Notes: generated from the letters alone by a model not told the origin. A DNA stretch of 64,000 nucleotides from a virus (IMGVR_UViG_2521172663_000002:2936-66935), one strand, 5' to 3'. Counted from the first letter of the stretch, positions 1,857 through 60,683 are shown. Made by a program: numbers and translations.

Positions 1857-1910
1857 CATAGCCCTGCTGCTTTGTCAACCACAAGGCGGCCACCACGCAG
1901 AGGAGACGAC

Positions 1911-2255
1911 ATGACGCTTATCACCAGCACTATGCTGGCGGATATGCACGCGCGCCGTGAAAACGGTGAGAGCGTCGCAGATATCGCCGCCAGACACAAC
2001 GTCAAGCCAATGGCTGCATACCAGCGGCTGCGGCGCACATACGGCCTGCACAAGCAGCGCGCCTTCATCCCGGCCAACGATAACGCCCCAGACCGCACGA
2101 CGCACTTGGCGCCGCACAACGGCGGCTGCTCCACGCTTTCCGGCCTTTTGCCGGTTTCGCTGCCGCGCGTTCTTGCAGCCGCAAACGACAATGCTGACGA
2201 TCTGGCAGCCGGGCAGGCGGTCAACGACTACGCGCTGCGTGGGGTGGCGGCATGA
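1911..2255 (+). CDS. Cro-position HTH-like protein with two ANDN motifs
   Basis: GAGGAGA RBS; GESVADIAARHNVKPMAAYQRL HTH-like; first gene after early promoter; ends GVAA. Confidence 0.7.
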   Translation: MTLITSTMLADMHARRENGESVADIAARHNVKPMAAYQRLRRTYGLHKQRAFIPANDNAPDRTTHLAPHNGGCSTLSGLLPVSLPRVLAAANDNADDLAAGQAVNDYALRGVAA

Positions 2256-2533
2256 CTTGCGACTGCGATTTCTTCAATTTCGGCGATCCAGTCCGCAATC
2301 GACAAAACCCTCATCTCACTGGCGTCGTCATCGGCGATCGCAACTGGGGCAGCGAGTACCAGGTGCGCCTTGCTGACGGCGCGACGACGATCTGGTGGCA
2401 CGGCTTCGAGATCGAGCACGATCCGGATGGCGAACCGCCAGCGAAAGAGGACGACGACACCAACGTCGTCAAGGTGGACTTCACACAACGGCGCGCGATG
2501 ACCGCCGAAACAACAACGGAAGGAGCGGCGTGA
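2252..2533 (+). CDS. Hypothetical SH3/KOW-like phage protein
   Basis: FNFGDPVR..GVVI..YQVRL pattern; ATGA coupling. Confidence 0.65.
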   Translation: MTCDCDFFNFGDPVRNRQNPHLTGVVIGDRNWGSEYQVRLADGATTIWWHGFEIEHDPDGEPPAKEDDDTNVVKVDFTQRRAMTAETTTEGAA

Positions 2534-3645
2534 TGGGTGAGTTTAAGAAGGGTGATTTTGTGCGCGTTAAAGACAATCGCGGTGCGCCGATGGACTATAA
2601 GAATGGCGACGTTTGCCAAATCAGCGCCGTGCGCGACGATCTAGTCTTCTCGAATAAAAAGCCCGGAATGTTTGCCAAGCGCTTCGAACCATGGCAGCCG
2701 CGCGTCGGCGAGCGGGTGCGTTACGGCGGAAGGAGCACAGTCTACAGCGAGAAGGAGCTGATTGGCATTGAAGGGCAGGTCACCGGATTGGATGGCAATC
2801 TCGTCACTGTCAAATGGGACAAAGCGATTGTCGATGGCATCATGACCGGGGGTGCGAAATATATCGAGAACATCGAGCCCATCATCACAGCCGCCACGCC
2901 CGAACAGCCCGCCACTATCAAGATCGAGGCTGGCAAGTTCTACAAGACGCGCGACGGACGGAAAGCCGGGCCCGCCTTCATCTCTGGAAACATCGCTACG
3001 TTCGGCAACGCAAGCAACTATGCTAGCGCTGTTTGGTCGGATGACGGTCGATCGTCGAGCCGTGAGGACAAATTGAGCCTCAAAGACAACGATATTGTCG
3101 CCGAATGGATCGACGAGCCCGTCGCCAAGCCCAGCAACGACAACGCGAAGCCGAAGTTCAAGGTCGGCGACATCGTGAAGCGTTCGAATGGTTTCATGCC
3201 TCACCAGCGACTTCGCATCACCAAAGTCGAGGGCGAGCGTTATAGCGTCGAATGGCTGGTCGGCGGACCAGGTAGTATCGATACCTGGCGCGGGTATGAA
3301 TTCGAGCTGGTTACTCCGGCACCCACACCCACCTCCATCGTCGCCCTCATCGAGAGCGGCCAGCCCAAGCCATCGTCGACACCGCACGTCCACACTTCCG
3401 CCGGCGCGGCCGAGAAGGAAGCCAAGCGCCTTGCGGCCAAATACAAGGGCCAGCAGTTCGGCGTGTTCACGCTGACCACCACGCATGAAGAAGCCGCACC
3501 GGTCTATGACCACAAGTGGCAGAACATGGCGGCTCTGGGCCTCAAGATCGACGCGATCAAGGAACTGCGAGCTGTTGCCGGCCTTACTTTGAAGGGTGCC
3601 AAAGACGCCGTCGAGGCGTGGATCGAATACGAGAACGCCGCCTAA
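2533..3645 (+). CDS. Multi-KOW-repeat protein with C-terminal ribosomal L7/L12-CTD-like domain
   Basis: FKKGDFV, PRVGERV, FKVGDIV repeats; KIDAIKELRAVAGLTLKGAKDAVE; TGATG coupling. Confidence 0.75.
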   Translation: MGEFKKGDFVRVKDNRGAPMDYKNGDVCQISAVRDDLVFSNKKPGMFAKRFEPWQPRVGERVRYGGRSTVYSEKELIGIEGQVTGLDGNLVTVKWDKAIVDGIMTGGAKYIENIEPIITAATPEQPATIKIEAGKFYKTRDGRKAGPAFISGNIATFGNASNYASAVWSDDGRSSSREDKLSLKDNDIVAEWIDEPVAKPSNDNAKPKFKVGDIVKRSNGFMPHQRLRITKVEGERYSVEWLVGGPGSIDTWRGYEFELVTPAPTPTSIVALIESGQPKPSSTPHVHTSAGAAEKEAKRLAAKYKGQQFGVFTLTTTHEEAAPVYDHKWQNMAALGLKIDAIKELRAVAGLTLKGAKDAVEAWIEYENAA

Positions 3646-3705
3646 CCGGCGCCAGCGGCTGGCTACCAACCAGCCGCACTTCACCACATCATTGAGGAGA
3701 CAATT

Positions 3706-3897
3706 ATGAAGGATGCATTCGCAATCCTCGTCGCGACGCTCATCACGCTTGTGCCGCTCAGCGCTGCCGTCGCTGCTTGGGTGACGCACGTCTATGTGTG
3801 TATTCAGGCCAGTGCATGGATCCTGCTAGCCTTCGGGTGCGTCGTCGCGCCTGTCGGCATCATCCACGGCATCGGCGTTTGGTTGGGAGCGTTCTAA
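3706..3897 (+). CDS. Small membrane protein
   Basis: GAGGAGA RBS; two hydrophobic segments. Confidence 0.7.
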   Translation: MKDAFAILVATLITLVPLSAAVAAWVTHVYVCIQASAWILLAFGCVVAPVGIIHGIGVWLGAF

Positions 3898-4121
3898 TGA
3901 CGTCCCCTTGGTACACCGAATCCACCACGCCACCCATCGACTACGTGCCGGTCACACCAACGCCGCGCAAGTATGTCCTTCGCGGATTGAAGCGCGGTGC
4001 ATTCGCCGCCCTGACAGCGGTAGTGGCCATTGGCCTCGTTATGCTGTTCCCGTTGGCGATCGTGGCTATCGCCGTGCTCGGCGCATTCTGGTGGCTGTTT
4101 TGCCTCCTCTACGCTCGCTGA
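3897..4121 (+). CDS. Small membrane protein
   Basis: TAATG coupling; MTSPWY...; hydrophobic C-terminal half. Confidence 0.6.
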   Translation: MTSPWYTESTTPPIDYVPVTPTPRKYVLRGLKRGAFAALTAVVAIGLVMLFPLAIVAIAVLGAFWWLFCLLYAR

Positions 4122-4210
4122 TCCCAAACTGGCAGTGGCTGATCGTCTTTGCAGCCGCTGCCTACATCGCAGCCATTGTTTTCACCACACCACCACACTG
4201 AGGAGGCCTT

Positions 4211-4984
4211 ATGGCTATTTCACTTAGCAGCTTGAAGTCGACGAAGAGAGCTGACCCGCCAGTCATCCTACTCTACGGCGTCGACGGTATCGGCAAAACC
4301 AGCCTTGCCGCCGAATTTCCTGACGCGCTCTATCTGCCCACGGAAGGCGAGCGCACACCGTCCGATATCGAGCTTGTCACGCCCGGCACCATTGAAAGCT
4401 TCGACGAGCTGCTCGACGTGTTCGGCGAACTGCTAACTGATGAGCACGACCGCAAGACAGTTATAATTGACAGCCTCGACGGTCTGGAGCCGTTGGTATG
4501 GGCCGCGACATGCCGTCGTATCGGTGTGGCTTCGATCGAGGAGGCTGGCTTCGGCAAGGGTTACGTTGAAGCCGACAGCGAATGGAATGAGCTCATGGCG
4601 GCTGTATCTGCCCTCGCTCAACGCGGCATCTGCGTGGTCATGCTTGCTCACCCTGAAATCGTCCGCTTCGACAGCCCTGTCACCGACCCGTACAGCCGCT
4701 ATCAACCGAAGCTGCACAAGCGCGCCAATGCCTTGGTGCGCGAGAAGTCCGACATCGTCGCGTTTATGAACTATCGCATCTCTATCAAGGAGAAGGAAGT
4801 CGCGCGGCAAACCAAAGTCTCACACGCTGAGGGCGGCAAAGAGCGTCAGGTGCATCTGTCGGAAGGCGCCGGCTTCAACGCGAAGAACCGCTACAGCATG
4901 CCTGATGCCGTGCCTTACCGAAAAGGGCAGGGCTATGCCGAACTGGCGAAGCACTTCCCGGCGCCGACGGGAGTGGCCGCATGA
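4211..4984 (+). CDS. Sak4-like (AAA_24) ssDNA-annealing ATPase
   Basis: YGVDGIGKT Walker A, VIIDSLD Walker B, AKNRY; next to SSB-like gene. Confidence 0.85.
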   Translation: MAISLSSLKSTKRADPPVILLYGVDGIGKTSLAAEFPDALYLPTEGERTPSDIELVTPGTIESFDELLDVFGELLTDEHDRKTVIIDSLDGLEPLVWAATCRRIGVASIEEAGFGKGYVEADSEWNELMAAVSALAQRGICVVMLAHPEIVRFDSPVTDPYSRYQPKLHKRANALVREKSDIVAFMNYRISIKEKEVARQTKVSHAEGGKERQVHLSEGAGFNAKNRYSMPDAVPYRKGQGYAELAKHFPAPTGVAA

Positions 4985-5136
4985 CCATGTTCCGCGGCGA
5001 GTCGTGGTTCGCGTGGCACCCCGTAAAGGCGCGCACTCGCTCCGGCCAGTTGATCTGGGTCTGGCTCACTTATGTCTGGCGCGACCAGGCATCGACGCAA
5101 TTCGGTAGCGGGCCTTTCCGCTACTACCTCCGCTAA
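4981..5136 (+). CDS. 51-aa hypothetical phage protein
   Basis: ATGA coupling; WFAWHPV...WVWL pattern common in phage small proteins; not in ORF track. Confidence 0.6.
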   Translation: MTMFRGESWFAWHPVKARTRSGQLIWVWLTYVWRDQASTQFGSGPFRYYLR

Positions 5137-5166
5137 GCACCCCACCACACCACAAGGAGACTACGC

Positions 5167-5745
5167 ATGGCCAAGATTGGCGTCAGAGTTGAAGCGACCG
5201 AAGAGAACACCCAGCAGCGCGATTTCACCAACCTGCCGAATGGCGACTACCAGCTTGAGATCAGCGCGTCCGAGATCAAGGAAAAGAACAAGGATACCCG
5301 CGACCACGCCATCAATCTGAGCGTGACAATCGACGTCCTTGCTCCCGAGGAACTCAAAGGCCGCAAGGTCTTCAACAACTACAATCTGCAGCATCCAAAT
5401 TCTCAGACGCAGGAGATCGGCCAGCGCCAGTTTGCCTGCCTCCTGCGCTCACTCGGCCTCAATGAGGCACCTGAAGATTCTGATGAATTGCATTTCATCT
5501 CGTTCTTTGCCCGCATCGGAATGGGCAAGGACAGCAAGGAGAAAAACGCCGACGGTACCCCGAAGTACGCGGCCCGCAACGAGTTGAAGAAGTACTACTA
5601 CCCAGATGAGGGCAACCTGCCTGAGCCGAAGGTTGATGCTGCGCCAGCCGCAGCCAACGACAACCGCCGCACTGCCGCCAGCAACGACAACAAGCCCGCC
5701 GCTGCGGCCGCTGGTACGACGCGCCGGCCGTGGGGCAGCAAGTAA
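5167..5745 (+). CDS. DUF669-like ssDNA-binding protein
   Basis: LPNGDYQLEI, GRKVFNNYNL, disordered tail ending PW; follows Sak4. Confidence 0.75.
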   Translation: MAKIGVRVEATEENTQQRDFTNLPNGDYQLEISASEIKEKNKDTRDHAINLSVTIDVLAPEELKGRKVFNNYNLQHPNSQTQEIGQRQFACLLRSLGLNEAPEDSDELHFISFFARIGMGKDSKEKNADGTPKYAARNELKKYYYPDEGNLPEPKVDAAPAAANDNRRTAASNDNKPAAAAAGTTRRPWGSK

Positions 5746-5805
5746 CCGTCAACGCGGGCTGTCTCACCAGCGGCCCGCTATTTCACCACAAGAGGAGATT
5801 TGCGC

Positions 5806-6558
5806 ATGGGATGCGATATTCATTTCTATGTTGAAAAGAAAATCGGCGACCAGTGGGTCACTGCTGACGAATGGGAAGACGACAAATACGACGAGGGTCG
5901 AAAGACCGTAGACTACAAGAAGCAGTTCTACAGCGGCAGATCGTACAATCTGTTTGCCATCCTAGCCGACGTCCGCAACGGTCGCGGATTTGCAGGGGTG
6001 AAGACAGGAGAAGGGTTTAACCCGATCGCCGCTCCGCGCGGAGTGCCCGACGATTGCTGCTCTGAATATCGGCAGATGATGGAGGACTATGGTTGCGATG
6101 GGCACTCGCACTCGTATTTCACCCTCGCAGAGTTGCTGGCTTACGATTGGACGCAAGTCACGCAACAACAGGGCTGGGTCAACCCGATTGAGTGGGCTCG
6201 GTGGCGCGACTACGGGAAGCCTAACGGCTGGAGCGGCGATGTAGGCGGCGGCAACGTTCGCCATCTCAGCAACCAGGAATTCGAGGCAGCTTGGCAGAAG
6301 GTGCGCCAAGAACAAGGCTATCCCGAGCAGCGCTACGCGTCTGCGCACTTGAACCGTCATCAAGAAGATGCGGGTGACCTGAAGCGCTTCAGGGAGATTC
6401 TCGGCGGCTCGCCATACACATTAGTGTCTTGGACTGAACCGTATTTCGAGGCCATCAACGGCGAGTTCTTCAGCCGCACCATCCCGCGCTTGCTCAAGGT
6501 CTCTCACGATGCCGGCGGCGCGGACAACGTGCGAGCGACATTCTTCTTCGACAACTAA
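5806..6558 (+). CDS. Conserved hypothetical phage protein
   Basis: MGCDIH...YNLFAILADVRN...HSHSY...FFFDN pattern; GAGGAGA RBS. Confidence 0.75.
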   Translation: MGCDIHFYVEKKIGDQWVTADEWEDDKYDEGRKTVDYKKQFYSGRSYNLFAILADVRNGRGFAGVKTGEGFNPIAAPRGVPDDCCSEYRQMMEDYGCDGHSHSYFTLAELLAYDWTQVTQQQGWVNPIEWARWRDYGKPNGWSGDVGGGNVRHLSNQEFEAAWQKVRQEQGYPEQRYASAHLNRHQEDAGDLKRFREILGGSPYTLVSWTEPYFEAINGEFFSRTIPRLLKVSHDAGGADNVRATFFFDN

Positions 6559-6617
6559 CCACCACCCGCCTGCCGCTCACCACGGCAGGCGCCACCACAA
6601 TCACCGAGGAGACACCC

Positions 6618-7670
6618 ATGCACCTTGTCATCCACAAGGAAGACCTGACGCGTGCGCTTGCCGCCACGACGAAAGTCGTCGAGGCAAGATCCACCATTCA
6701 CATCCTGTCGAGCGTTCAAGTTGCTGCCGCAGGTGAAGGCCTTGCTATCACGGCAACCGACCTCGATATTATTGCCACCGCAGGCGTACCTGCTGAGGTC
6801 AGCAAGCCAGGCAACATCTGCGTCAGCGCGAAGCTGCTCAACGACATCGCGCGCAAGGCAACCGGCGACATCACCATGACGCTGGATGGTGACAAACTTC
6901 TGGTGAAGTCCGGACGGTCGCGCTTTTCTCTTGCCACGCTGTCAGCAGATGACTTCCCAACGCTCGGCGACGACAAGTTCGACGCTGAATTCGAGATTGA
7001 TCTGGCAGGACTGTTCGCGCCAGTCTCGTTCGCCATTTCGACCGAGGAAACTCGCTATTATCTAAACGGCGTGTTCTTCAAGGGCGGCAAGTCCGAAGCA
7101 GTTGCGACAGACGGCCACCGTCTCGGCCGCCACTACGGTCCAGAGCTGCCAGCCTTCGACGGCATTATCGTGCCGCGCAAGACCGTTGGCCTGTTGCCAA
7201 AAGGCAAGGTGCAGGTGGCTGTGAGCCAGCAGAAAATCCGCATTGTTTCGGACGATGTGCGCATTACCTCAAAGCTGATCGATGGCACGTTCCCAGATTA
7301 CGAACGCGTCATTCCGAAAAGCAACGAACGCGTCGTGACTGTCGATCGCGATGCACTGATGAAGGCGTCCGATCGTGTGTCGACGGTGTCGTCTGAGCGT
7401 GGCCGCGCCGTGAAGTTCAGCATCGCGCCCGGCAGCATCGCGCTCGCTGTTGCAGCTGGCGAGGCGTCGGCAAATGACGAAGTTGAGGCGGAATACAGCG
7501 GCGAGCCGATGGATATCGGTTTCAATGCGGCATACGTCCGCGACGTGCTGAATGTGCTTCCGTCTGGACCGGTCAAGCTGGCCTTGCAAGATGGTGGCAC
7601 GCCGGGACTGATTACGTCCGATGGCTTTGAGGGGCTGACTCTCGTTTGCATGCCTATGAGGGTCAGCTGA
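6618..7670 (+). CDS. dnaN: Phage-encoded DNA polymerase III beta sliding clamp
   Basis: ATDLD, STEETRYYLNG, ATDGHRL, SKLIDGTFPDYERVIP, IGFN, MPMRV. Confidence 0.95.
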   Translation: MHLVIHKEDLTRALAATTKVVEARSTIHILSSVQVAAAGEGLAITATDLDIIATAGVPAEVSKPGNICVSAKLLNDIARKATGDITMTLDGDKLLVKSGRSRFSLATLSADDFPTLGDDKFDAEFEIDLAGLFAPVSFAISTEETRYYLNGVFFKGGKSEAVATDGHRLGRHYGPELPAFDGIIVPRKTVGLLPKGKVQVAVSQQKIRIVSDDVRITSKLIDGTFPDYERVIPKSNERVVTVDRDALMKASDRVSTVSSERGRAVKFSIAPGSIALAVAAGEASANDEVEAEYSGEPMDIGFNAAYVRDVLNVLPSGPVKLALQDGGTPGLITSDGFEGLTLVCMPMRVS

Positions 7671-7710
7671 TGGTGGCTCTTGTAATCTTCGCTTCTGGGG
7701 TGGGGTCATA

Positions 7711-8658
7711 ATGGCCCCACTACCCAAACCAGAATCCAGTACAGTCCGCGCCATCTATGCAGCCTACGAAGCCGCAGCCTCGTCATGGGACAGCCTCGGC
7801 ATATCCGTCGGCGAGGCCAACAATCCGTGCGACCGCGCACTCTGGTACGCCTTCCGCTGGGCCTCGCCGCTCGAAAAGCACCACGGTCGCCAGCTGCGCC
7901 TGTTTGAAACCGGCAACATCGAGGAAGACCGGCTAGTTGCCGACCTCGAACGCATCGGCGTCGATGTCTATGGCCAGCAGGACAAAATCAGGCTGGTACA
8001 GGGCCACGTGCGCGGCAAGTGCGATGGCAAGGCCATGGGTGTCGTCGAGGCGCCAAAGACCGAGCACCTGCTCGAATTCAAGTCGAGCAACGCTAAGGGC
8101 ATGAAGGAGATCATTAAGAAGGGCTGTAAGGAGGCAAAACCACTTCACTACGGCCAGTGCCAGCTCGGAATGCATGCCTTCGGGCTATCGCGCTGCCTCT
8201 ATCTCGTCAGCTGCAAAGATGACGACACGCTCTACGCTGAGCGCATCGAATACGATCCGGAGTTCTGCCTGCGTCTGCTGGCGCGGCTAGAACGTATCAT
8301 CAACTCGCCGGAGCCGCCTTCACGCATCAACGAGGCACAGGACTGGTTCGAATGCATGTTCTGCAAGCACAAGCCTGTCTGCAAGGAGGGCGCTTGGCCC
8401 CGCGTGACGTGCCGGTCCTGCATCCACTCTTCACCGGAGATGGGCGGCGATGGTCATTGGTCGTGCGCGCGATGGGCAAAGCCGATCTCGTTCGACGAGC
8501 AAAAGGAAGGCTGTCCCACGCATCTCACCATCCCGGCTCTCGTGCCAGGCGAACAGACGGATTGCGACGAGGAAGCTGAGACGATCACTTACGTGCTGCG
8601 GGACGGAAATCATTGGGTGGATGGTGGAGGAGATCCAATCCAACACGTAAAAGTTTGA
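7711..8658 (+). CDS. Cas4-like PD-(D/E)XK exonuclease
   Basis: GKCDG, LLEFKS, HYGQCQ, Cys cluster ECMFCKHKPVC. Confidence 0.8.
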   Translation: MAPLPKPESSTVRAIYAAYEAAASSWDSLGISVGEANNPCDRALWYAFRWASPLEKHHGRQLRLFETGNIEEDRLVADLERIGVDVYGQQDKIRLVQGHVRGKCDGKAMGVVEAPKTEHLLEFKSSNAKGMKEIIKKGCKEAKPLHYGQCQLGMHAFGLSRCLYLVSCKDDDTLYAERIEYDPEFCLRLLARLERIINSPEPPSRINEAQDWFECMFCKHKPVCKEGAWPRVTCRSCIHSSPEMGGDGHWSCARWAKPISFDEQKEGCPTHLTIPALVPGEQTDCDEEAETITYVLRDGNHWVDGGGDPIQHVKV

Positions 8659-9233
8659 TTGTCTGCGAACGCAGACTGCGCAATGCGAGGGCCTTTCCTG
8701 ACGACGTCAAAACCACCAACTATTCTGCTACGTCTTGCAACGGACACGGTGACGCCGGAAATGTGGTTGGAGTAAATTGCGTCCTCTGAGCGTTCGAATT
8801 GCATTAAGTCGGTACCTGTGCATCTGGGCATCTGCTTTTTTCTGCCAGGTGACGCGAAATTCAATCTTGATGTCTCCTTCGCACGCAAAATTCTGGATGG
8901 GTACTCCAGCGAGTTTGGTGTCAGAGGTTGGGGATTTTCTTGTTTAAGAAAAGGGAAGGAAGGGGTGAAACGACTGCCCGTCTGGTTTTCCGAAGCGCTG
9001 ATGTCAACACGGGTGCTTGCTGGTTTGCCAGTGGAAGACCTGACTTCGTCGCCGGGGAGTACAGTTAGTATGCTAAGTGAGAGAACAACTAATATCGGAT
9101 AACAAAATGTAGCGACAGTCGCGAGGTTTGCAATGTCTGCAAGCGTTGGTCTTTTGTTACCAACGTTCACTGTGGGGGAAGGGTAAAAATGGTTCGTTAT
9201 ACTGATGTTCGAACTTCGATACCTCTTTCTCAA
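8610..9233 (-). CDS. Lower-GC hypothetical membrane-anchored moron (start uncertain)
   Basis: Antisense insert with hydrophobic segment; no family recognised. Confidence 0.4.
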   Translation of the reverse strand: MRKRYRSSNISITNHFYPSPTVNVGNKRPTLADIANLATVATFCYPILVVLSLSILTVLPGDEVRSSTGKPASTRVDISASENQTGSRFTPSFPFLKQENPQPLTPNSLEYPSRILRAKETSRLNFASPGRKKQMPRCTGTDLMQFERSEDAIYSNHISGVTVSVARRSRIVGGFDVVRKGPRIAQSAFADNQTFTCWIGSPPPSTQ

Positions 9234-9352
9234 AATCTATAGCTCCCCATGTATGCGGATACGTAATGGATAGGATCGCTGATAGTTAATGAAATGACAA
9301 CATAAATTTGAAGGCGCCACCAACGCCTGAGCCACCACATGAGGAGACCACC

Positions 9353-9889
9353 ATGCCGCTTGTAGCACGCACGGCGCTTGTCGCTGCCAACGATAATAAT
9401 CCGCGCCGCCCCGAGTTCGACCGCAAGCTTTTGGCCTACGAGCCTGCTTTGCGACGACTGGCGCGCAAAATCACCAGGAACGAAGACGCCGCCGACGAAC
9501 TGTTTCAGTCGGCGATGGTCGTCATGTTGCGCCGGCATCGCGAATGCCGCCTTGAGACCTTCTGGACGTGGGCCACCCTTTGCGTTCGCGGAACGGCGCA
9601 GGAATTCGTTCGCACCAATTCCACCAAATCGCGGTCCGCTGAGGTCTGCAGTCTCTCGGCGTTCGACGAGATGCCGGGCGCTACCGATCCGCATCAGGAG
9701 GATGGCACCGACCTATCGCGTGTTGTTTCCCTGCTCGAAGGCCGCAATGGCGCGATGCTAATGCGCCGAGCGATGGGCGAGACGCTGGAAGCCATTGGCA
9801 ACGACCACGGCCTCACGAAAGAACGTGTTCGCCAGGTTGTCATCAAGGAGCGGGCGAGGGTGCTCGGGCTGCTGCGGGAGGCGGCTTGA
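9353..9889 (+). CDS. Sigma-70/ECF-like transcription factor
   Basis: Region 2-like LRRLARKIT..AADELFQ; region 4-like TLEAIG..GLTKERVRQ. Confidence 0.75.
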   Translation: MPLVARTALVAANDNNPRRPEFDRKLLAYEPALRRLARKITRNEDAADELFQSAMVVMLRRHRECRLETFWTWATLCVRGTAQEFVRTNSTKSRSAEVCSLSAFDEMPGATDPHQEDGTDLSRVVSLLEGRNGAMLMRRAMGETLEAIGNDHGLTKERVRQVVIKERARVLGLLREAA

Positions 9890-11616
9890 TGGCACTACGG
9901 TATTACCAGCGTGAGGCTGTCGACGCGACGTTCGATTACTGGCGCGAAGAGGCCGGACATCCGCTCATCGATATGGCTACGGGCACAGGCAAAAGCATGA
10001 CATTGGCCACGCTTTTCCATGAGATGATCACTGGCTGGCCTGACATGCGCCTCTTGAATGCCGTTCACGTTCAAGAACTCGTAGAGTCAAACTTCAAGGA
10101 AATGATCGGCATTGCGCCGTTCGCCCCGGTCGGCCTTTACGCTGCTGCGTTGGGTCGCCGCGACGCGCGCGCGCAGATCCTCTTTGCCCAACTGCAAACG
10201 GTCTGGAACAAGGCGAAAGAAATTGGGCACGTTGACGTGTTGGCGATCGACGAAGTGCACCTTGTGCCCGACGACGAGAACACAATGTACCGCGTCTTTA
10301 TCCAGGCGCTTTTGGCCATCAACCCGGAAATGAAAATTGTTGGTCTTTCGGCCACCCTTTACCGACTCGATAGTGGTCGGTTGGATGAGGGTGAGGATCG
10401 GCTATTTGATCGAACGGTTTACAGCTACGGCATTCGCGAGGGCATCGATGATGGCTATTTGACGCCGATCACTTCGAAACCAACGTCTACGAAGCAGGAC
10501 ACGTCTACCGTTCCCTTGCGAGGAAATGATCTGGCGAAAGGCGCCCTTCAAAAAGCAGTCGACCACGACTGGCTCAACAAGCGTATCGTCGAGGAGGTTT
10601 TTGATACAGAGCCTCACCGCAAAACGGCGCTATTCTTCTGCGCGGGAGAAAAGCACGCGACGAACATGCGCGACGTCATACGGTCGGCGGGAAGATCCTG
10701 CGAAATCATCATGGGTACAACACCAAAAGGTGAGCGTCGAAAGATTATCGAGGCATACAAGCGCGGCGAGATTTGGGGCATTTGCAATGACAATGTGATG
10801 TCAACGGGCACTAACGTTCCTCGTATCGATCTCATCGTCGACGCGGCCAAGACAAAGTCGGCAAGCCGATATGTGCAGCGCGTGGGTCGAGGTACTCGTG
10901 TGATTTATCCGCGTGGATTTGACCCTGAAGCAGCGAGTGCAGAAGAGCGCCGTGCCGCAATATTTGGGGGCGATAAACCAAACTGCCGATACATGGACTT
11001 TGCGGGAAACGTCGGCGAACACGGGCCTGTGGACATGATTGTTCCAACTAAGCCGTCAAAGGGCGACGGCACGGCGCCAATTAAGGTCTGCCCTCAGTGC
11101 GAGGAGCAACTTCACGCGTCAATCCGCGTCTGCTGGTGCTGTGGTCATGAGTTTGTATTCGACGAGACACCAAAGCTGCAATCGAAGCCCACCGATGCGC
11201 CCATTATATCGACCCAGGCACCAGAACCCCGCACCGTCACGTCGCGCAGCTTCTATTACCATGAGGGCAAGGGGGATAAACCGCCGTCGGTGAAGGTCAG
11301 CTACATGTCCGGCATGACGGCGATCAATGAGTGGATTTGCCCGCAACATAGCGGATTCCCGAAGTCAAAGGCCGACCGCTACTGGCGCGCGCATGGCGGC
11401 AAAATGCCGTTTCCAAAGACCGTTCTGGAATGGATCGAGCGTCAGTCAGAACTGGCCGAAACGGTCGAGATCACAGTGAAGCCGCGCCAGAAGTATTGGG
11501 ATGTTGTGGGCCACATGGTTGGTGCTGCGAACGACAATCACGTGTCACCGGCCAATGACAATGCGCCGGAAGCAGAGGATTGGCGGGTGTTAGTTGAAGA
11601 TGATATTCCATTCTAG
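9886..11616 (+). CDS. SF2 DEAD/H helicase with Zn finger (RadD/YejH-like)
   Basis: LRYYQ, ATGTGKS, DEVH, LSAT, QRVGRGTR, CPQC..CWCC. Confidence 0.9.
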   Translation: MMALRYYQREAVDATFDYWREEAGHPLIDMATGTGKSMTLATLFHEMITGWPDMRLLNAVHVQELVESNFKEMIGIAPFAPVGLYAAALGRRDARAQILFAQLQTVWNKAKEIGHVDVLAIDEVHLVPDDENTMYRVFIQALLAINPEMKIVGLSATLYRLDSGRLDEGEDRLFDRTVYSYGIREGIDDGYLTPITSKPTSTKQDTSTVPLRGNDLAKGALQKAVDHDWLNKRIVEEVFDTEPHRKTALFFCAGEKHATNMRDVIRSAGRSCEIIMGTTPKGERRKIIEAYKRGEIWGICNDNVMSTGTNVPRIDLIVDAAKTKSASRYVQRVGRGTRVIYPRGFDPEAASAEERRAAIFGGDKPNCRYMDFAGNVGEHGPVDMIVPTKPSKGDGTAPIKVCPQCEEQLHASIRVCWCCGHEFVFDETPKLQSKPTDAPIISTQAPEPRTVTSRSFYYHEGKGDKPPSVKVSYMSGMTAINEWICPQHSGFPKSKADRYWRAHGGKMPFPKTVLEWIERQSELAETVEITVKPRQKYWDVVGHMVGAANDNHVSPANDNAPEAEDWRVLVEDDIPF

Positions 11617-11640
11617 GTTTAGTTACGCTGGGGGAATAGA

Positions 11641-12120
11641 ATGGATTCGGGTTGGCTAAAGATATTTGATCTTTCTGGACCTACTGTGTTGGCATGTTTT
11701 GCCACCTGCGCAGGCGTCAGTTACGGGTATGAAAATGAAATATTTCTTTTGTCTTTCATGCCCTTGGCTTTCGTTGTGGTAGCCAACATAGGCATCTTTT
11801 TCTTTGGCGCCCTCACTGTGGTTTGGATCGTGAGGTGGCTTCGTGATGTTATCCTCTGGTTACGACACGAAATCACTTTTTCACGAAATGTCGTCGATCA
11901 ACTGGATTCCCTTTCGGTGGACGAGAGGCGGTTCATTCGCAGTCTTTTGGAGAATAACCAATCTCACTACACGACCAGCCTAACCAGCCCAGTCACAGCA
12001 ACATTGATACATAGAGGATTAGTGCGACGGGGGTCTGGCCAACACAGCATGATCGATTTCCCCCATTATGTGCCCCTAAAGGTCTGGAAAGTGATCAAAA
12101 AAAATGGTGACAGACTATAG
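11641..12120 (+). CDS. SieB-like superinfection exclusion protein
   Basis: Lower GC; N-terminal TM helices then LDSLSVDERRFI..LIHRGLV winged-helix-like tail. Confidence 0.55.
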   Translation: MDSGWLKIFDLSGPTVLACFATCAGVSYGYENEIFLLSFMPLAFVVVANIGIFFFGALTVVWIVRWLRDVILWLRHEITFSRNVVDQLDSLSVDERRFIRSLLENNQSHYTTSLTSPVTATLIHRGLVRRGSGQHSMIDFPHYVPLKVWKVIKKNGDRL

Positions 12121-12124
12121 AATG

Positions 12125-12153
12125 TTGACAAATTTGTAAAAACGGTTTAGTTT
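12125..12153 (+). promoter_or_regulatory. Second copy of early promoter/operator
   Basis: TTGACAAATTTGTAAAAACGGTTTAGTTT. Confidence 0.8.
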
Positions 12154-12200
12154 TGAATACTGCGCCACACCAATGGCGTCACCACGTTGAGGAGATAGAT

Positions 12201-12653
12201 ATGAGCAGAACGACGTACAGGCGCGCCTGCGCTCTGGCAGAACACTACTTGGCAATTGACCGGCGCGAGATATGGCTCGACGAGAACGACCCACACCTTC
12301 CATGGGATAAGGTGACGAGCGTAAAGGCTGGCGGTGGGTATCGTCTCAATGGCCCAACTGGCGTTCGCATCGAGGCCAACGACCCAGCCGGCCTGTCATT
12401 CTTGTGGCTCGTGGACTTTGAGTCCCGCGACGCAAATGGGTCCAGCATCAACCAATTTGATCGTGTCGCAATGCTGAACATGGCCAGAAGACTACCGCCG
12501 CATGTCCGCGAGAAGTTTGCACAATTTCTGACCGACGAAGTTCTGCCGGCTGTTCAGCAGCGGACTGCTGAGTTTGAGGAACAGATGAAGAAGCAGCGAG
12601 ATAGTCTCGAAATCCTGCAGTCGATCATCCTCAACGTCGGAGCCGCAGCATGA
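12201..12653 (+). CDS. Hypothetical protein
   Basis: GAGGAGA RBS; ends GAAA. Confidence 0.7.
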   Translation: MSRTTYRRACALAEHYLAIDRREIWLDENDPHLPWDKVTSVKAGGGYRLNGPTGVRIEANDPAGLSFLWLVDFESRDANGSSINQFDRVAMLNMARRLPPHVREKFAQFLTDEVLPAVQQRTAEFEEQMKKQRDSLEILQSIILNVGAAA

Positions 12654-13171
12654 CCAAACCAGCCAACGACAACTATTTGGCTGCCGACGTCGCCAACCTT
12701 GAAGCGCTTTTCGCCGACATGCTGGCCGCTTATCCCGAGCTCGAAGCCGACGAAGAGCTTCGCGCTGATATGCTGGAAGGCGAGACCAACTTCCACGCCG
12801 TCCTGACGCGTCTCGTCAACGGCGAGCGCGACGCCGACAGTCTGGCAAAGGCCGTAGCAGGGCGCATCTCAGATCTGCAAGCACGCAAGTCGCGCGCTGA
12901 GCGCCGCAAGGAAGCAATGCGCAGTCTGATGTTCAAATTGCTGAAAGCTGCCGGCGTGCCGCGCGTACCTCTGGCTGAGGCTACGATCTCGATCGGCAGG
13001 AAGGCTGCATCTGTTGAGATCGTCGACGAGGCTCTGTTGCCGAAGGCCTACGTTCGTGTTTCGACGTCGCCGGACAAGACCGCCATCAAGGAAGCTCTGC
13101 AGGCTGGCAAGAAGGTCCGTGGTGCAAAGATGGGCGAGGCGGGTGAGCTGTTGTCGGTGAGGGTGGCTTAA
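12650..13171 (+). CDS. Siphovirus Gp157 family protein
   Basis: Coiled coil then VEIVDEALLP..PDKTAIKEALQAGKKVRGA. Confidence 0.85.
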   Translation: MTKPANDNYLAADVANLEALFADMLAAYPELEADEELRADMLEGETNFHAVLTRLVNGERDADSLAKAVAGRISDLQARKSRAERRKEAMRSLMFKLLKAAGVPRVPLAEATISIGRKAASVEIVDEALLPKAYVRVSTSPDKTAIKEALQAGKKVRGAKMGEAGELLSVRVA

Positions 13172-13180
13172 ACGGGAGGC

Positions 13181-14212
13181 CTAAACAAGAATGTCGCTAG
13201 TTGCGTCCACGTTCTCGAAATACCCGTCCGGCCGCCGTCGCCTCGGGATAAGGAAGCGGTTCCATTCGACCTCTCTCTCGAATTGTGGCGGATTATCCAC
13301 ATCGTACCAATTTTTCTGTTTGCGCAAATTTAGAACTTCATCGATATCAGCAGGATCGTCGTGAAATTTGCACCCTGAAAAATTGCAACGCTCGAAACGA
13401 TGGTTGTCAAAATGATAGTCCATTTCGCTGATTCTTGACACTTCGGACATTTGGAAGGTGCACGCGTCATAAGTGCCATTTTTTACTGGGTAGTTACCGC
13501 GATGAATCACGGCGTTTCGTACCGAAAATGAATCAAGTGAAATTACCTCCAAGGCATTTTTCGTAAGCGTGCCGCCTGAGTAAGACTGATGCTCGAAGCC
13601 AGCTATACCAGGCCATCGCATATCGGGGGTCTGGGCAGAAAATTTGGCACGGATCGTGCTCTTCATGCCGCTCGAGTTTGCGTTGAATATGACTGAATGC
13701 GCGAGACGAGCTGATGAATTTGTTTGGTAGGCGCGCGCCGCGTCCTTGCTGACGTCGTTGTGCATTGATGCGTAAAAGTTTGCTACAACGTTCAGTGCTT
13801 GACGAGAGAAGCGACGTTTCGGTTCGTTAATCACGACCTCCAGCGTCGCCAGCCCCGCAAGTTGGTCCTGATGCTTGTTGGGATCCCCCAGCAATTTTGC
13901 GCCCTCTTGCAGTAACTTCGCGTAATTCGCATCATCGTTCGCGTCGTTTTGGGCTTTCTGTTGGTCCGCTTGTCTCGCTCCAACAAGTCCGCGCCACGCG
14001 ACTGTGCTAAATGTAACGAGTGCTAGGAAGATTGTTGCAAAGGGGGAAGAAATATCGACGCGTTCCTTCATGGCTTTGAGATCGGGAGCAGATAACACCC
14101 ACGAACTTGCGAATAAAAAGCAAGTCAAGCCTATTAGAACAAGTGAAATGGAGATGACGTACCAGTCTTTTTCGGTGATTTTGGGCCAGTCTCTAACGGG
14201 TTTATTTTCCAT
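13181..14212 (-). CDS. Membrane-anchored moron, pentapeptide-repeat-protein-like architecture
   Basis: Two TM helices, AKLLG..QLAGLATLE, C-terminal FERCNFSGCKF; start MENKP. Confidence 0.55.
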   Translation of the reverse strand: MENKPVRDWPKITEKDWYVISISLVLIGLTCFLFASSWVLSAPDLKAMKERVDISSPFATIFLALVTFSTVAWRGLVGARQADQQKAQNDANDDANYAKLLQEGAKLLGDPNKHQDQLAGLATLEVVINEPKRRFSRQALNVVANFYASMHNDVSKDAARAYQTNSSARLAHSVIFNANSSGMKSTIRAKFSAQTPDMRWPGIAGFEHQSYSGGTLTKNALEVISLDSFSVRNAVIHRGNYPVKNGTYDACTFQMSEVSRISEMDYHFDNHRFERCNFSGCKFHDDPADIDEVLNLRKQKNWYDVDNPPQFEREVEWNRFLIPRRRRPDGYFENVDATSDILV

Positions 14213-14363
14213 ATGCAGCCCCCTTCTTGGGGCACACACTAGCATTTCCCATTTCTTTCTCACTAATAAGTTGAAAGGTATCCACAACTAACCAACACCC
14301 GCCGCGCCACCAACGCGGCTTCCGCTTCGGCGGGAACACCACAGTCTGAGGAGACATACCAAA

Positions 14364-15686: not shown

Positions 15687-16504
15687 TGGCTAAGCTCACC
15701 AAAGCTCAAGCAAAGGCCCATGCGCAGGCCTGCGACATCCTCACCAAAGCCGTGCTGACCGAAGACGACAAGGACTTCGTCCTCAAGAACTGGAACGAGG
15801 GCGCGAACCACGTTAACGGCGCTGCTGGCGCGTTTTTCACACCGTACGATATGGCGTTCGATTTCACCATCGATGCCATCGGGCAAGGCGGATACGGCGG
15901 GCGGATCATCGATCTGTGCGCTGGCATCGGCATGCTGTCCTACGCGTGCTGGCACCGAAGCCATCATAAGGCTCGCATCACCTGCGTGGAGCGGAATCCC
16001 GACTATCTCGCGGTTGGTCAGAAGATACTACCGGAGGCGGAGTGGATTCTCGCTGACGTGCTGGACGTGCTGGACATGGGGCTGGGCAGGTTTGACGTTG
16101 CCATCAGCAATCCGCCCTTTGGTAAGATCAAACGCGACGGCGGCGCTCCTCGCTACACAGGAGCGGAGTTCGAATTCCATGTGATCGATATAGCCGCTCA
16201 TCTGGCTGACTCTGGCGCGTTCATCGTGCCGCAGATGTCCGCTGGCTTCAACTACAGCGGTCGGCCTTCCTACGAGCAACAGAAGGACGGCAAGGCGGTC
16301 AAATTTCAAGAGCTCACCGGCCTTCACTTCGAGGCTGGCTGCGGGATCGACACGGCTTTCTACATCAACGATTGGAAAGGTGTTTCGCCCATGTGCGAGA
16401 TCGTGTGCGTCGAATTTGAGCGACCGGACGAAGCGTGTCTCATTGAGGCGGCAAATGACAATGTGTCGCCGGTTCAGGCGGATTTGTTTGGGGTGGCAGC
16501 ATGA
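15686..16504 (+). CDS. Amino-methyltransferase (gamma-order motifs)
   Basis: GAFFTP, DLCAGIG, NPPF. Confidence 0.85.
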   Translation: MAKLTKAQAKAHAQACDILTKAVLTEDDKDFVLKNWNEGANHVNGAAGAFFTPYDMAFDFTIDAIGQGGYGGRIIDLCAGIGMLSYACWHRSHHKARITCVERNPDYLAVGQKILPEAEWILADVLDVLDMGLGRFDVAISNPPFGKIKRDGGAPRYTGAEFEFHVIDIAAHLADSGAFIVPQMSAGFNYSGRPSYEQQKDGKAVKFQELTGLHFEAGCGIDTAFYINDWKGVSPMCEIVCVEFERPDEACLIEAANDNVSPVQADLFGVAA

Positions 16505-16521
16505 CCACCCCAAAAAATTCG

Positions 16522-17604: not shown

Positions 17605-17676
17605 GTTATTCCTCCATCATAGGTTGAAGGATACGTGGCGAAAAACTTTTAAAATTTCGTTCTAGGAGAGGCAGGC

Positions 17677-18051: not shown

Positions 18052-18056
18052 GCCGG

Positions 18057-18884: not shown

Positions 18885-18955
18885 CCCTAGCCAAAATGCG
18901 TGCCTGCGTTGTGTAGCAGCCGCTGGCTCGCCTTATCAAGCCAAGGAGACCCCCT

Positions 18956-58125: not shown

Positions 58126-58246
58126 CGAGCTTCCTTTCGCTAGTGGGAATTGCGTGTTAGCACATGAAACACTCGGCTGGAATTTTTCGTGCGGTATCTT
58201 TGTACATAAACAGCAAGTCGCATACCCATACATTACTCGTTGATTC

Positions 58247-58275
58247 TTGACAAATTTGTAAAAAGAGTATAGCGT
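58247..58275 (+). promoter_or_regulatory. Third copy of early promoter/operator
   Basis: TTGACAAATTTGTAAAAAGAGTATAGCGT. Confidence 0.8.
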
Positions 58276-58353
58276 GAATATCGGCCTAACCAGCCGCTCG
58301 GCAACCAACCGGGACCACCACATTGGCGCAAGACGCCAGAAAGAGGGGATATC

Positions 58354-59019
58354 ATGCTCAGACGATTCCTGCGTGCATTATTGCGGCGTTCGCCGACAGC
58401 ATTCCTCGTTGCTTTATTCCTCGTCGTCGCCGCTACCTCTGCGGCCGCGTACGCGCTCCTTCCTCCGCCCAATTTGCCGGCGACCGAGAGCGCCACCGTC
58501 AAAATCCAAGTCAACGACGCCCACGGCTCCGGCGTCCACATAGGCGACGGCTTTATCGTCACTGCTGCACACGTCGTCGGCGACGCTAAAGAGGTCCAGA
58601 TGAAGGCGAAGGACGCCGAGTTCCGCAAGGCGGACGTCCTTTGGGTCAATAAGGCCAACGACATCGCACTGCTGCGCACGTCGTCGGACGGCTTAGGGAT
58701 TGCTCACCTTTCCTGCCGCTCGGTGAATGCTGGCGATCCTATCGTTGCCTACGGCAATCCCCTGCAAATCGAATTCGTTGCCGCGTACGGCAAGATTGCC
58801 GGCGAGCCTCGCAAAACAGGTCCGTGGAACGCTGTCTATGTGACCGACATCACGACCGTGATGGGGCAATCAGGCGGGCCTGTCTTTACGGACAAGGGCG
58901 ACCTGATCGGCATCACCGTCGGCGTCATGGCGGCGCCTATTGGCTTCTCAGGCTCGCTGGTTGGATATGGGTATGTCGTGCCTTCGACTGCTGTTTGTGA
59001 GTTGTTGGCGCGGAAGTAA
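58354..59019 (+). CDS. Exported trypsin-like serine protease
   Basis: Signal/TM; TAAHV, DIALL, GQSGGP triad. Confidence 0.9.
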   Translation: MLRRFLRALLRRSPTAFLVALFLVVAATSAAAYALLPPPNLPATESATVKIQVNDAHGSGVHIGDGFIVTAAHVVGDAKEVQMKAKDAEFRKADVLWVNKANDIALLRTSSDGLGIAHLSCRSVNAGDPIVAYGNPLQIEFVAAYGKIAGEPRKTGPWNAVYVTDITTVMGQSGGPVFTDKGDLIGITVGVMAAPIGFSGSLVGYGYVVPSTAVCELLARK

Positions 59020-59071
59020 AATCATCAGGCCGCCCACCAAGCGGCCTCAACCACCACCTCGAGGAGAGCGC

Positions 59072-60322
59072 ATGCTACCTACCGAAGAACTCCGCCGAAG
59101 AGTCGACGCTTACCGTGAACACGGCACGCTTATCAAAGCAGCTGCTGCCCTTGGCATCGGCAAGTCTGCGCTTGCTGAGAGCGTGAAGCGCGCTGCTGAG
59201 GCTGGCATGCTTGGCACTGAGCCTGTCTTGCCAGGATTCCGCATCAGCCGCATCAGCAACACGCCGAGCGGCACGTTCATCCAGCAAGCGCCCGAGCGTG
59301 GTGAGCGTTTCGAAGTGCCAGCTGGCCATGTTGTCAAAGGCGTGTCTGCCCTCGTCGATGCTAACGGGCGAGTTATCCAACAATGGCAGAAGACGGCGGT
59401 GGAGGCAGAAGGCCAGCTTGCCGCCTTTCAAGCAATGGTCGACGGCCTCAAGGAAGATCTTCCCCGTATCACGATCATGCCCGCGCCGCAGCACGTCGAA
59501 GAAGATTTGCTCAACCAGTTCGTTGTGACAGACAGCCATTTCGGAATGCTCGCTCACCGCGAGGAGACAGGCGCTGACTACGATCTTCGTCTGGCCGAGC
59601 AGTTGCTGCTAGATTGGTTTGCCGCCGCCGTGGCAGGTGCTCCGCAGGCGCACACAGCCGTTCTTGCACAGCTCGGAGACCTTTTACACCACGACGCCCT
59701 CGAGAGCGTCACGCCTGCACATAAGCACGTCCTCGATGCCGATTCCCGCCTTCATAAGGTGGTCCGCGTCGTCATCAGAACACTACGGCGCGTCGTCGAC
59801 ATGCTGCTACAGAAGCACAAGCACGTTCACGTCGTGATGGCGTCTGGCAATCACGATCCTGCCTCATCTGTTTGGGTTCGAGAGCTTCTTGCGACGATTT
59901 ATGAGAACGAGCCGCGCGTGACGGTCGATACCAGCCCGATGCTGTATTATGCCTACAAGTGGGGAGACACAGCGCTGTTCTATCACCACGGCCATAAGCG
60001 CGGCGTGGCCCAGGTCGACGCTACGCTCGCAGGCACGTTCCGCGAGATGTTCGGCGCCTCGAAATACGCCTTCGCTCATGTGGGCCACCTGCACAGCGAT
60101 GAAGGCCGCAAGTCGGCGCTGATGTATGTCGAGCGCCATGAGACGCTTGCCGCTCCTGATGCTTACGCTGCTGGCGGTGGATGGCTGTCCGGTCGATCTG
60201 CCAAGGTCATCACGTATTCGCGCCGATATGGCGAAGTGGCTCGGGCGACGTTGCGGCCGGAGATGGTTGCTGGTCGGTATTCGGCTGCGAATGACAATGA
60301 GCCGGTGAAGGCGGCGGCGTGA
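59072..60322 (+). CDS. Calcineurin-like metallophosphoesterase with N-terminal HTH
   Basis: DSH, GDLLH, GNHD, HHGH, GHLH; ends AANDNEPVKAAA. Confidence 0.8.
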   Translation: MLPTEELRRRVDAYREHGTLIKAAAALGIGKSALAESVKRAAEAGMLGTEPVLPGFRISRISNTPSGTFIQQAPERGERFEVPAGHVVKGVSALVDANGRVIQQWQKTAVEAEGQLAAFQAMVDGLKEDLPRITIMPAPQHVEEDLLNQFVVTDSHFGMLAHREETGADYDLRLAEQLLLDWFAAAVAGAPQAHTAVLAQLGDLLHHDALESVTPAHKHVLDADSRLHKVVRVVIRTLRRVVDMLLQKHKHVHVVMASGNHDPASSVWVRELLATIYENEPRVTVDTSPMLYYAYKWGDTALFYHHGHKRGVAQVDATLAGTFREMFGASKYAFAHVGHLHSDEGRKSALMYVERHETLAAPDAYAAGGGWLSGRSAKVITYSRRYGEVARATLRPEMVAGRYSAANDNEPVKAAA

Positions 60323-60326
60323 CGCC

Positions 60327-60509
60327 CTAGCGAACATACCAGTATCCGCCAGCGCCCAGCGCGATGAACGGTGCAAGCCTGTAGGTCACGGCGATGATCG
60401 TAAGCAGCAACATTCCAAGAGTGTTGTTTGCTTCACCCTCGGTTTTACCGTGCCTGAACTTAAGGAAGGTATTCATTTGGTGCTCCAGGATTAGAATCGC
60501 TGGCACCAC
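60327..60509 (-). CDS. Small hydrophobic peptide
   Basis: TM-like; antisense insert; likely start MNTF. Confidence 0.4.
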   Translation of the reverse strand: MVPAILILEHQMNTFLKFRHGKTEGEANNTLGMLLLTIIAVTYRLAPFIALGAGGYWYVR

Positions 60510-60683
60510 AATGGCAATAAGGACTCCCTACGGGCCGAAGGTCAATTGCCAATGGGGGATAACCACCGAAACAACCGGAAAATTGGGATTTCTTGAGCAT
60601 TTATACAGTGCCTTCCCCAGCAATCCCCAACCGACGCCAATCACCAATTGGCATCGAATCACCGCACCACTGAGGAGACAGAA

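Follow-up and report, generated by a model that had tools for sequence, protein, structure and literature searches.

The stretch of DNA analyzed here, hereafter the window, is a 64,000-nucleotide (nt) sequence that corresponds to bases 2936-66935 of a 66,935-bp viral record (IMGVR_UViG_2521172663_000002) with a 64-bp terminal repeat. Its phage is a temperate siphophage and a distant relative of Rhizobium phage 16-3, to which it is 76% identical at the DNA level across the segment from Sak4 to Cas4. Near-identical prophages occur in Agrobacterium tumefaciens MEJ076 (95% identity in the sliding clamp) and A. rosae NCPPB 1650 (94%). An earlier note, made from the sequence alone, had described a dispersed element ahead of the non-structural genes, in which a hairpin with an ACCA loop is followed by CACCAC and a GAGGAG-type ribosome binding site, and had proposed either nut/boxB-like antitermination sites or binding sites for a translational regulator. 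We find that the element is a sense-strand RNA leader cassette placed before non-structural genes that initiate translation independently.

Leaders of the window

Fifteen leaders lie on the + strand of the window (Table 1), and their modules follow a constant order. A G+C-rich hairpin, with a stem of 5-12 bp of any sequence and CACCA shown in a 6-7-nt loop, is followed, mostly 0-5 nt on, by single-stranded CACCAC, usually as CACCACA (13 of 17 leaders, including two outside the window described below). An extended Shine-Dalgarno (SD) sequence, GAGGAGAC, follows 0-7 nt on, and the start codon 4-9 nt further. The gap between CACCAC and the SD is 0-7 nt in 14 of the 15 leaders and 21 nt at 58316, and the SD reads GAGGAGA, GAGGAGG, AAGGAGA, GGGGAGA or GAGGGGA. 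Twelve leaders have a hairpin upstream, their stems mutually unrelated and their loops of the CACCA type; the other three have tandem linear copies instead. All 13 hairpins, the three hairpin-less leaders and the terminator loop listed in the earlier note were recovered, and CACCAC with a GAGGAG-type ribosome binding site was present at all 15 sites. One hairpin of the tandem pair, given there as 58298-58312, is better drawn as 58297-58313. The genes 3' of the elements are all non-structural, and among their products are helix-turn-helix (HTH)-like, Sak4, single-stranded DNA-binding (SSB)-like, sliding clamp and sigma-70 family proteins, a methyltransferase, a protease, an exonuclease, a MazG-like pyrophosphatase and proteins of unknown function.

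Table 1. Leaders, promoter-like units and doubtful hairpins in the window (positions counted from its first letter).
Feature	Coordinates	Strand	Hairpin (stem; loop)	CACCAC or linear motif	SD	Start codon	Downstream gene product or remark
Leader 1	1866-1913	+	1866-1890 (9 bp, 2 G.U; TCAACCA)	1891	GAGGAGA 1900-1906	ATG 1911	114-aa HTH-like protein
Leader 2	3655-3708	+	3655-3677 (8 bp; CTACCAA)	3682	3694-3700	ATG 3706	
Leader 3	4183-4213	+	hairpin-less	CACCACACCACCACAC	GAGGAGG 4200-4206	ATG 4211	Sak4-like annealing protein
Leader 4	5143-5169	+	hairpin-less	CACCACACCACA	AAGGAGA 5154-5160	ATG 5167	SSB-like protein
Leader 5	5754-5808	+	5754-5778 (9 bp, 2 G.U; CTCACCA)	5784	5792-5798	ATG 5806	
Leader 6	6567-6620	+	6567-6591 (9 bp; CTCACCA)	6593	6606-6612	ATG 6618	Sliding clamp
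Leader 7	9312-9355	+	9312-9328 (5 bp; CCACCAA)	9333	9341-9347	ATG 9353	Sigma-70 family protein
Leader 8	12162-12203	+	12162-12179 (6 bp; CACCAA)	12180	12189-12195	ATG 12201	
Leader 9	14301-14366	+	14301-14319 (6 bp; CCACCAA); second hairpin 14320-14336 (TTCG)	14337	14348-14354	GTG 14364	DNA methyltransferase
Leader 10	21256-21299	+	hairpin-less	CACCAAACCAAACCAAACCACACCAC	21285-21291	ATG 21297	
Leader 11	24995-25034	+	24995-25010 (5 bp; CCACCA)	25012	GAGGAGG 25020-25026	ATG 25032	
Leader 12	25499-25539	+	25499-25515 (5 bp; CTACCAA)	25518	GGGGAGA 25525-25531	ATG 25537	
Leader 13	58282-58356	+	Tandem 58282-58296 (4 bp; CTAACCA) and 58297-58313 (5 bp; CAACCAA); third hairpin after CACCAC	58316	GAGGGGA 58343-58349	ATG 58354	Protease
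Leader 14	59027-59074	+	59027-59047 (7 bp; CCACCAA)	59052	59061-59067	ATG 59072	DNA repair exonuclease
Leader 15	60636-60686	+	60636-60652 (6 bp; CACCA)	60665	60672-60678	ATG 60684	MazG-like pyrophosphatase
Promoter-like units (near-identical)	1826-1862, 12125-12160, 58246-58281						TTGACAAATTTGTAAAAA..TAGTTT/TAGCGT; palindrome ACAAATTTGT across spacer
Doubtful hairpin	2450-2470	+	Perfect, 7 bp; ACACCAA				Inside gene 2252-2533 (codes DDDTNVV), 60 nt before next gene
Doubtful relative	63776-63794	+	Intrinsic terminator with CTAACCA in loop, then T run				Covariance-model E 6.9

The pattern CACCAC-N0-8-RRGGRG was matched 18 times in the window, against 0.31 +/- 0.61 expected from 100 dinucleotide shuffles. 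Sixteen of these matches fall within 14 leaders, the leader at 58316 escaping the pattern through its 21-nt gap, and the two strays lie inside the portal gene (30174, + strand) and at 43833 on the - strand. CACCAC itself occurs 43 times on the + strand versus 13 times on the - strand, and perfect hairpins (at least 5 bp, ACCA in the loop, CACCAC within 20 nt) number 10 on the + strand and one on the - strand, the latter outside the window. The claim that all elements are on the plus strand therefore holds for the window but not for the genome: the 2.9 kb to the left of the window contain two leaders on the - strand (window coordinates -204 and -725), one of which bears a CCAGC-AAACCAA-GCTGG hairpin. 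Since these are the leaders of a leftward operon, orientation follows transcription and is not tied to the + strand.

Three of the leaders stand directly after promoters, as had been claimed. The TTGACAAATTTGTAAAAA-N-TAG(T/C)(T/G)T promoters (TTGACA-N17-TAGTTT/TAGCGT) end 7-10 nt before the hairpins at 1866, 12162 and 58282 (leaders 1, 8 and 13), which are thus the predicted 5' ends of the three transcripts; leader 1 begins about 7-10 nt past the -10 element of TTGACA-N17-TAGTTT. The same promoter-like unit was found in 16-3 and in a more distant locus (L045). In 16-3, the start expected from the annotated -10 element of PL falls 1-3 nt before a GCGCCC/GGGCGC hairpin that is followed by ACCACCACC and GAGGAGAC, and the protease gene of 16-3 is preceded by a tandem hairpin pair matching that of leader 13. 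Within operons, hairpins begin 2-9 nt past the upstream stop codon (3655, 5754, 6567, 14301, 25499 and 59027; 9 nt at 3655), and leader 11 lies about 70 nt beyond a terminator at 24907-24925.

Hairpin folding and distribution

Leaders were then defined irrespective of structure across the genome, 77 viral loci and 16-3, which gave 367 distinct sequences. In 244 of these, a hairpin with 5 or more bp lies within 45 nt, compared with 29% of shuffles, and in 132 such a hairpin has an ACCA loop, compared with 0.75% of shuffles. The 132 ACCA-loop hairpins use 55 distinct 5' stems. Their loops are 7 nt long in 93 cases and 6-7 nt in 123, and have C before ACCA in 96, so that the word in the loop is the same as the linear word. 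Clamp-gene leaders picked by the downstream gene alone gave a similar picture: 33 of 42 distinct leaders contain a perfect ACCA-loop hairpin (1.5% of shuffles), the stems of which belong to six or more unrelated families, and imperfect hairpins are present in the majority of the remaining nine. In the 25 distinct hairpins whose stem has a single internal non-Watson-Crick pair, 15 G.U pairs and 4 A.C pairs were counted, an excess that fits folding of the sense strand. Variable stems around a constant loop, already taken in the earlier note as the mark of an RNA-level signal, together with this G.U preference support, at the level of sequence comparison, a signal that acts as sense-strand RNA.

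RNAalifold detected no structure in an alignment of the 42 clamp-gene leaders, because MAFFT had placed loops from one class of hairpin opposite the linear motif of a second class, and per-sequence counts were used instead. A first mixed alignment (A1) was out of register and was replaced by A2, an alignment without gaps of 24 hairpins that share a loop class, in which the inner five pairs were selected to pair, making their pairing a matter of construction. Both-side changes are seen at all seven pairs of A2, and the two unselected outer pairs are still paired in 16 and 14 of the 24 rows. A covariance model of the hairpin alone, built on this seed, matched eight sites in the window at E < 0.2, none of them on the - strand. 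Leaders account for seven, of which three were not in the seed; leader 2 scores 28.3 bits, and the hairpin of leader 12 was recovered although it lies outside the seed alignment. Since A2 holds one loop class, the model misses the CTCACCA-type loops at 1866, 5754 and 6567. The eighth match (2450-2470, E 0.003) was rejected as a leader, being intragenic and having no CACCAC after it. A T run after the stem, as expected of an intrinsic terminator, is absent at the leader hairpins, where CACCAC is found instead; the only T run follows 63776-63794, which was not counted as a member as it lacks a CACCAC-SD leader. At the Rfam gathering score, the window yields two tRNA matches and one ar35 match, none of them at an element.

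Linear motif and SD are equally regular across the family. Of 498 distinct SD-anchored sites ([GA]AGGAG with an open frame) in family loci, 63% have CACCAC within 20 nt upstream, which at 312 sites is by far the commonest 6-mer there; 75% have a run of at least six A or C residues, and 65% have ACA, within the same distance. At least two copies of ACCA are present in 318 of 356 leaders, with an ACCA-to-ACCA spacing of 11-30 nt and a stem-to-CCA distance of 0 to at least 5 nt.

The family that bears these leaders consists of temperate phages of Agrobacterium, Rhizobium and Sinorhizobium. The leader pattern occurs 61 times per 100 kb in 46 family loci around the clamp gene, compared with 1.2 in 31 loci of more distant phages, 0.86 in 78 chromosomal dnaN regions of alphaproteobacteria, 0.22 in 80 loci around the capsid gene of this family (two matches over 900 kb), and 0.1-0.5 in the reversed-order control. 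This bears out the statement that the elements precede non-structural genes. The boundary of the clade is sharp: loci with at least 58% clamp identity have 3-17 + strand leaders, and those with at most 55% have 0-1. Pattern matches in named phages number 15 in RHph_X2_25, 16 in RHph_TM3_3_14B, 11 in AP-16-3 and 14 in NV1.1.1, with a single match in Aurantimonas phage AmM-1. Leaders in phage 16-3 precede, for example, the genes for protease, clamp, methyltransferase and Sak4, and the capsid gene has one as well. More distant phages carry looser C/A-rich leaders before the same genes, and this clade has apparently settled on a single form of a wider C/A-leader habit.

The earlier note had found no element in the late operon (27518-53552). 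The covariance model indeed has no match there. One CACCAC does lie at 32435, 21 nt before the SD of the capsid gene; it codes for Ser-Pro-Leu of the upstream gene and is replaced in relatives, and we therefore judge it a chance occurrence and not a late member. Host leaders are likewise not hit as often as phage ones. Of the pattern matches in two Agrobacterium genomes, 9 of 11 in one and 12 of 16 in the other fall inside about 55 kb of prophage, as do four of five covariance-model matches (150 of about 1,300 candidates scored per genome).

A literature search found no description of the leader, older 16-3 papers and supplements being outside its reach. The text of the AP-16-3 genome paper (PMC10460002) does not mention hairpins, stem-loops, Shine-Dalgarno sequences or ribosome binding, or intergenic features.

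Possible roles of the leader

Judging from sequence and from analogy, we favor, at a probability of about 0.5, the reading that the unit would be a cassette for translation initiation and mRNA stability. Its fixed closeness to the SD points to translation initiation. The C/A motif may serve as an upstream translational enhancer or as a standby anchor for the 30S subunit, like enterobacterial C/A-rich and ACA elements. The hairpin, standing at the 5' end of primary and possibly of processed transcripts, may protect the mRNA, could shield the initiation region from upstream coding RNA, and would present a second copy of the motif in its loop. Stabilizing 5'-terminal hairpins of the Escherichia coli ompA type likewise stand at or a few nt from the (here predicted) 5' end and are followed by a single-stranded stretch and then the SD; unlike them, the leader hairpin has a conserved loop sequence and also occurs inside operons. 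Relatives of the operon are present in contigs from RNA libraries, part of which may be DNA, and these contigs are uninformative on transcript ends.

A functional parallel is found on the translational side. Immediately 5' of the SD, C/A-rich and ACA elements are described as proven Salmonella enhancers, with effects of up to 100-fold and no need for fixed spacing (PMC3879156), and ribosome standby sites are described as formed by CA tails (PMC5934652). Both the enhancers (gltI, yifK and dppA; GcvB targets) and the standby sites resemble the leader in being single-stranded and C/A-only just upstream of the SD, in their flexible spacing and in the frequent presence of several copies. The leader shows the corresponding features, namely a C/A-only stretch upstream of the SD, ACA (in 13 of 17 leaders here) and loose spacing (0-7 nt, once 21). 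It differs in having one strict word, CACCAC, with a second copy in a hairpin loop, in its fixed extended SD, in its use by a phage clade and not by the host, and in that no G/U-rich small RNA matching it was found.

Several observations nevertheless weigh against a cassette for translation and stability. The stretch upstream of the SD is weakly more open than in other genes (unpaired probability 0.64 versus 0.49, p 0.06), and the SD itself is predicted to be no more accessible than in other genes (0.49 versus 0.46). The leader is missing from the late structural genes, whose protein products are needed in the largest amounts, and the host barely uses it, with 2 of 11 and 4 of 16 matches outside the prophage in the two Agrobacterium genomes. 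Moreover, the word is far stricter than "C/A-rich" would require, and its presence in at least two copies in most leaders fits a specific reader better than a generic anchor. Together, these points keep a specific reader in play.

Such a reader would be a sequence-specific factor that recognizes at least two CACCA words, one in the loop and one on the SD side, and the leaders would be the operators of an early-gene regulon whose mRNAs are jointly switched in translation or decay. The role could fall to an RNA-binding protein of phage or host, to a small RNA rich in G and U, or to a component of the ribosome, and regulation would proceed much as at CsrA sites, with T4 RegA/RegB or at GcvB targets. 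We regard this regulon as unlikely, and hardly more likely the broader claim that CACCA is the recognition word of a dedicated reader (an immediate-early phage protein, a Rhizobiaceae host factor, or a ribosomal site). The strict linear word repeated in the loop, the early-only use, the absence of the element from host genes and the sharp clade boundary at about 58% clamp identity would all suit it, as would two small proteins, a 93-aa SH3/KOW-like protein (2252-2533) and the 114-aa protein (1911-2255), that match the distribution of the motif among the loci compared, although this may be plain shared descent. The ACCA-to-ACCA spacing is variable, the hosts span three genera, and Pfam and PHROGs searches found a recognizable RNA-binding domain in no early protein. 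The 93-aa protein (+ strand) tracks the clade and is predicted to form an SH3-like barrel (core predicted local distance difference test score, pLDDT, >90). Foldseek matches it best, at a weak E (8e-3), to NusG KOW domains, and VIA-align gives a Z of 8.1 against an Spt5 KOW domain, with PWWP and Tudor folds scoring equally; a generic barrel of this kind, itself a prediction, names no function. The candidate reader of the earlier note, a "multi-KOW" protein of 371 aa (2530-3645, + strand), is a poor one. Its sequence includes about four similar K-x-GD-x-V repeats and, at the C terminus, a stretch resembling the L7/L12 C-terminal domain, for which Pfam gave a sub-threshold match (22.5 bits); Pfam found no KOW domain. 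The protein is absent (E 1e-3) from the close relatives L016, L019 and L077, which have 12, 8 and 10 + strand leaders, and present in the more distant L046, L051, L055 and L056, which have 1, 0, 0 and 0. A scan of G/T-only runs for an anti-leader small RNA gave no candidate besides 22923-22969 (z -6.2, with GGTGG words), a structured stretch that was rejected in turn. It contains two palindromes, CCACCATTTTGGTGG, 30 bp apart, ahead of a - strand gene with its start near 22869; a bidirectional terminator comes next, and 10 IMG/VR contigs conserve this layout. Although the half-site resembles the leader word, the palindromes are probably operators of an autoregulated repressor. In the 16S rRNA of the A. 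rosae host (L246, of G002), UGGUGGUG at 1184-1191 is complementary to CACCACCA; this segment would belong to helix 41, where it is paired and distant from the site of mRNA exit, and we provisionally treat the complementarity as coincidence. Known regulators offer partial parallels. CsrA/RsmA sites also present a short word twice, once in a loop and once single-stranded at the SD, but their word is GGA, the leader word CACCA does not overlap the SD, and no CsrA-like protein was found here. T4 RegA and RegB act on a mark at the initiation region that is common to many early genes and lacking in late ones, and that mark and the leader alike would permit joint shut-off; here, however, no homologue was detected, and the mark, of which a hairpin is part, is located upstream of the SD.

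The remaining explanations do less well. In lambda, boxB is a hairpin with a 5-nt purine-rich loop and boxA a CGCTCTTA-like word. Processive antitermination of the nut/boxB type, in which a phage protein bound to the hairpin loop would modify RNA polymerase so that terminators are read through, would make sense of a small hairpin with constant loop and free stem, read as RNA, right after the three early promoters, and the early operon does encode small SH3/KOW-like proteins with the weak NusG matches given above. But each genome has at least 15 sites, each tied to an SD; some leaders lack the hairpin, and the loops are 6-7 nt long in 123 of 132 cases with only C and A around ACCA. No boxA-like word stands beside any element (YGCTCTTWA with one mismatch has 40 matches versus 39.5 expected), and no convincing + strand intrinsic terminator was found within 1866-21181, Rho-dependent sites being outside the scope of the method. 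The multi-repeat 371-aa protein does not co-occur with the motif, and the early small proteins have no family match to an N-type arginine-rich antiterminator, although proteins this short escape profile searches. With too many sites, each SD-tied, no boxA-like word nearby and no convincing intrinsic terminator to overcome, the nut/boxB-like role suggested previously is not supported, and we hold it to be decidedly improbable. Also improbable, if somewhat less so, is RNA punctuation, whereby an endonuclease would cut near the elements so that each early mRNA is capped at its 5' end by a hairpin, or the upstream gene keeps one at its 3' end, and segments differ in stability, in the manner known from the RNase III sites of T7 and from the puf operon hairpins. 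It is suggested by the hairpins just past upstream stop codons and the same hairpin at predicted primary 5' ends, and a hairpin with ACCA after it is reminiscent of RNase P model substrates. The stems, however, are too short for RNase III, the variable stem-to-CCA distance offers no fixed tRNA-like geometry, three leaders are hairpin-less, and the constant loop would go unexplained. Finally, the leaders could act mainly as DNA, as short homologies for swapping gene cassettes between phages, with any RNA role secondary. Mosaic joints do fall inside leaders: gene 5806-6558 is missing from five relatives (L004, L006, L007, L019 and L026) and from contigs of two runs of one study (X2 and X4), with the joint between the CACCAC and the SD of two leaders, so that in the relatives the hairpin of gene 5806 abuts the clamp SD and in the contigs 5790 is joined to 6606. 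At least three different upstream genes, furthermore, precede the clamp leader. Yet free stems with a constant loop, the G.U preference and the fixed SD distance are unexplained by recombination, the common words are very short (6-8 bp), and joints can simply arise where repeats are maintained for some other purpose. Most likely the repeats give rise to the joints but do not exist for their sake, and we give a mainly DNA-level role scarcely any credence. The promoter-stem-loop (PeSL) cassettes of T4-type phages are comparable in being repeated regulatory units between early genes, with mosaic joints observed at the units; by contrast, only 3 of the 15 units here have a promoter, their stems are not homologous copies, and their constant parts are the loop, CACCAC and the SD.

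Other features of the window and implications

Further features of the window were recorded along the way. A phage tRNA-Met gene (26583-26659, + strand, anticodon CAT) lies at the early/late boundary. It has an initiator-like C1 x A72 mismatch and a GCAACCA 3' end, and its anticodon stem is without the three G-C pairs of initiators; its D-arm, T-loop and 3' end presumably resemble those of E. coli tRNA-fMet. The 3' part of another tRNA gene (63940-64000, - strand, 30.1 bits) is cut by the end of the window and is probably the attachment-site core of the prophage. The Rfam match to ar35, an alphaproteobacterial small RNA (23328-23458, + strand; 55 bits, gathering score 45), lies in a low-GC accessory region and adjoins a CsbD-like gene (23112-23315) and a weakly HEPN-like gene (23548-24444). 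Among the early proteins encoded at 1911-2255, 2252-2533, 2530-3645 and 12201-12653 (+ strand), several end in -AA and some hold ANDN, which we take to resemble the alphaproteobacterial ssrA tag. A SieB-like superinfection-exclusion protein (11641-12120, + strand; Pfam, 30.4 bits) is encoded by an insert of low third-position G+C content (GC3) that has no leader.

If the leader is indeed a translation-initiation and stability cassette, then one compact, portable RNA unit serves early-gene expression across a family of rhizobial and agrobacterial temperate phages, one of which is the classical model phage 16-3. It would then be a natural, ready-made expression leader for Rhizobiaceae, and would offer a handle on the unexplained potency of C/A-rich enhancers. 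Since the leaders coincide with mosaic joints, they may also shape gene exchange among these phages, and the leader marks early genes in prophage annotation. It may, moreover, be the visible half of an RNA-reader pair. Should a dedicated reader exist, the genes behind these roughly 15 leaders would make up an early regulon controlled after transcription, a type so far not described among temperate phages, in which a bipartite mRNA tag, with one copy of the word in the loop and one linear, would allow all non-structural genes to be jointly boosted, timed or shut off independently of host mRNAs.

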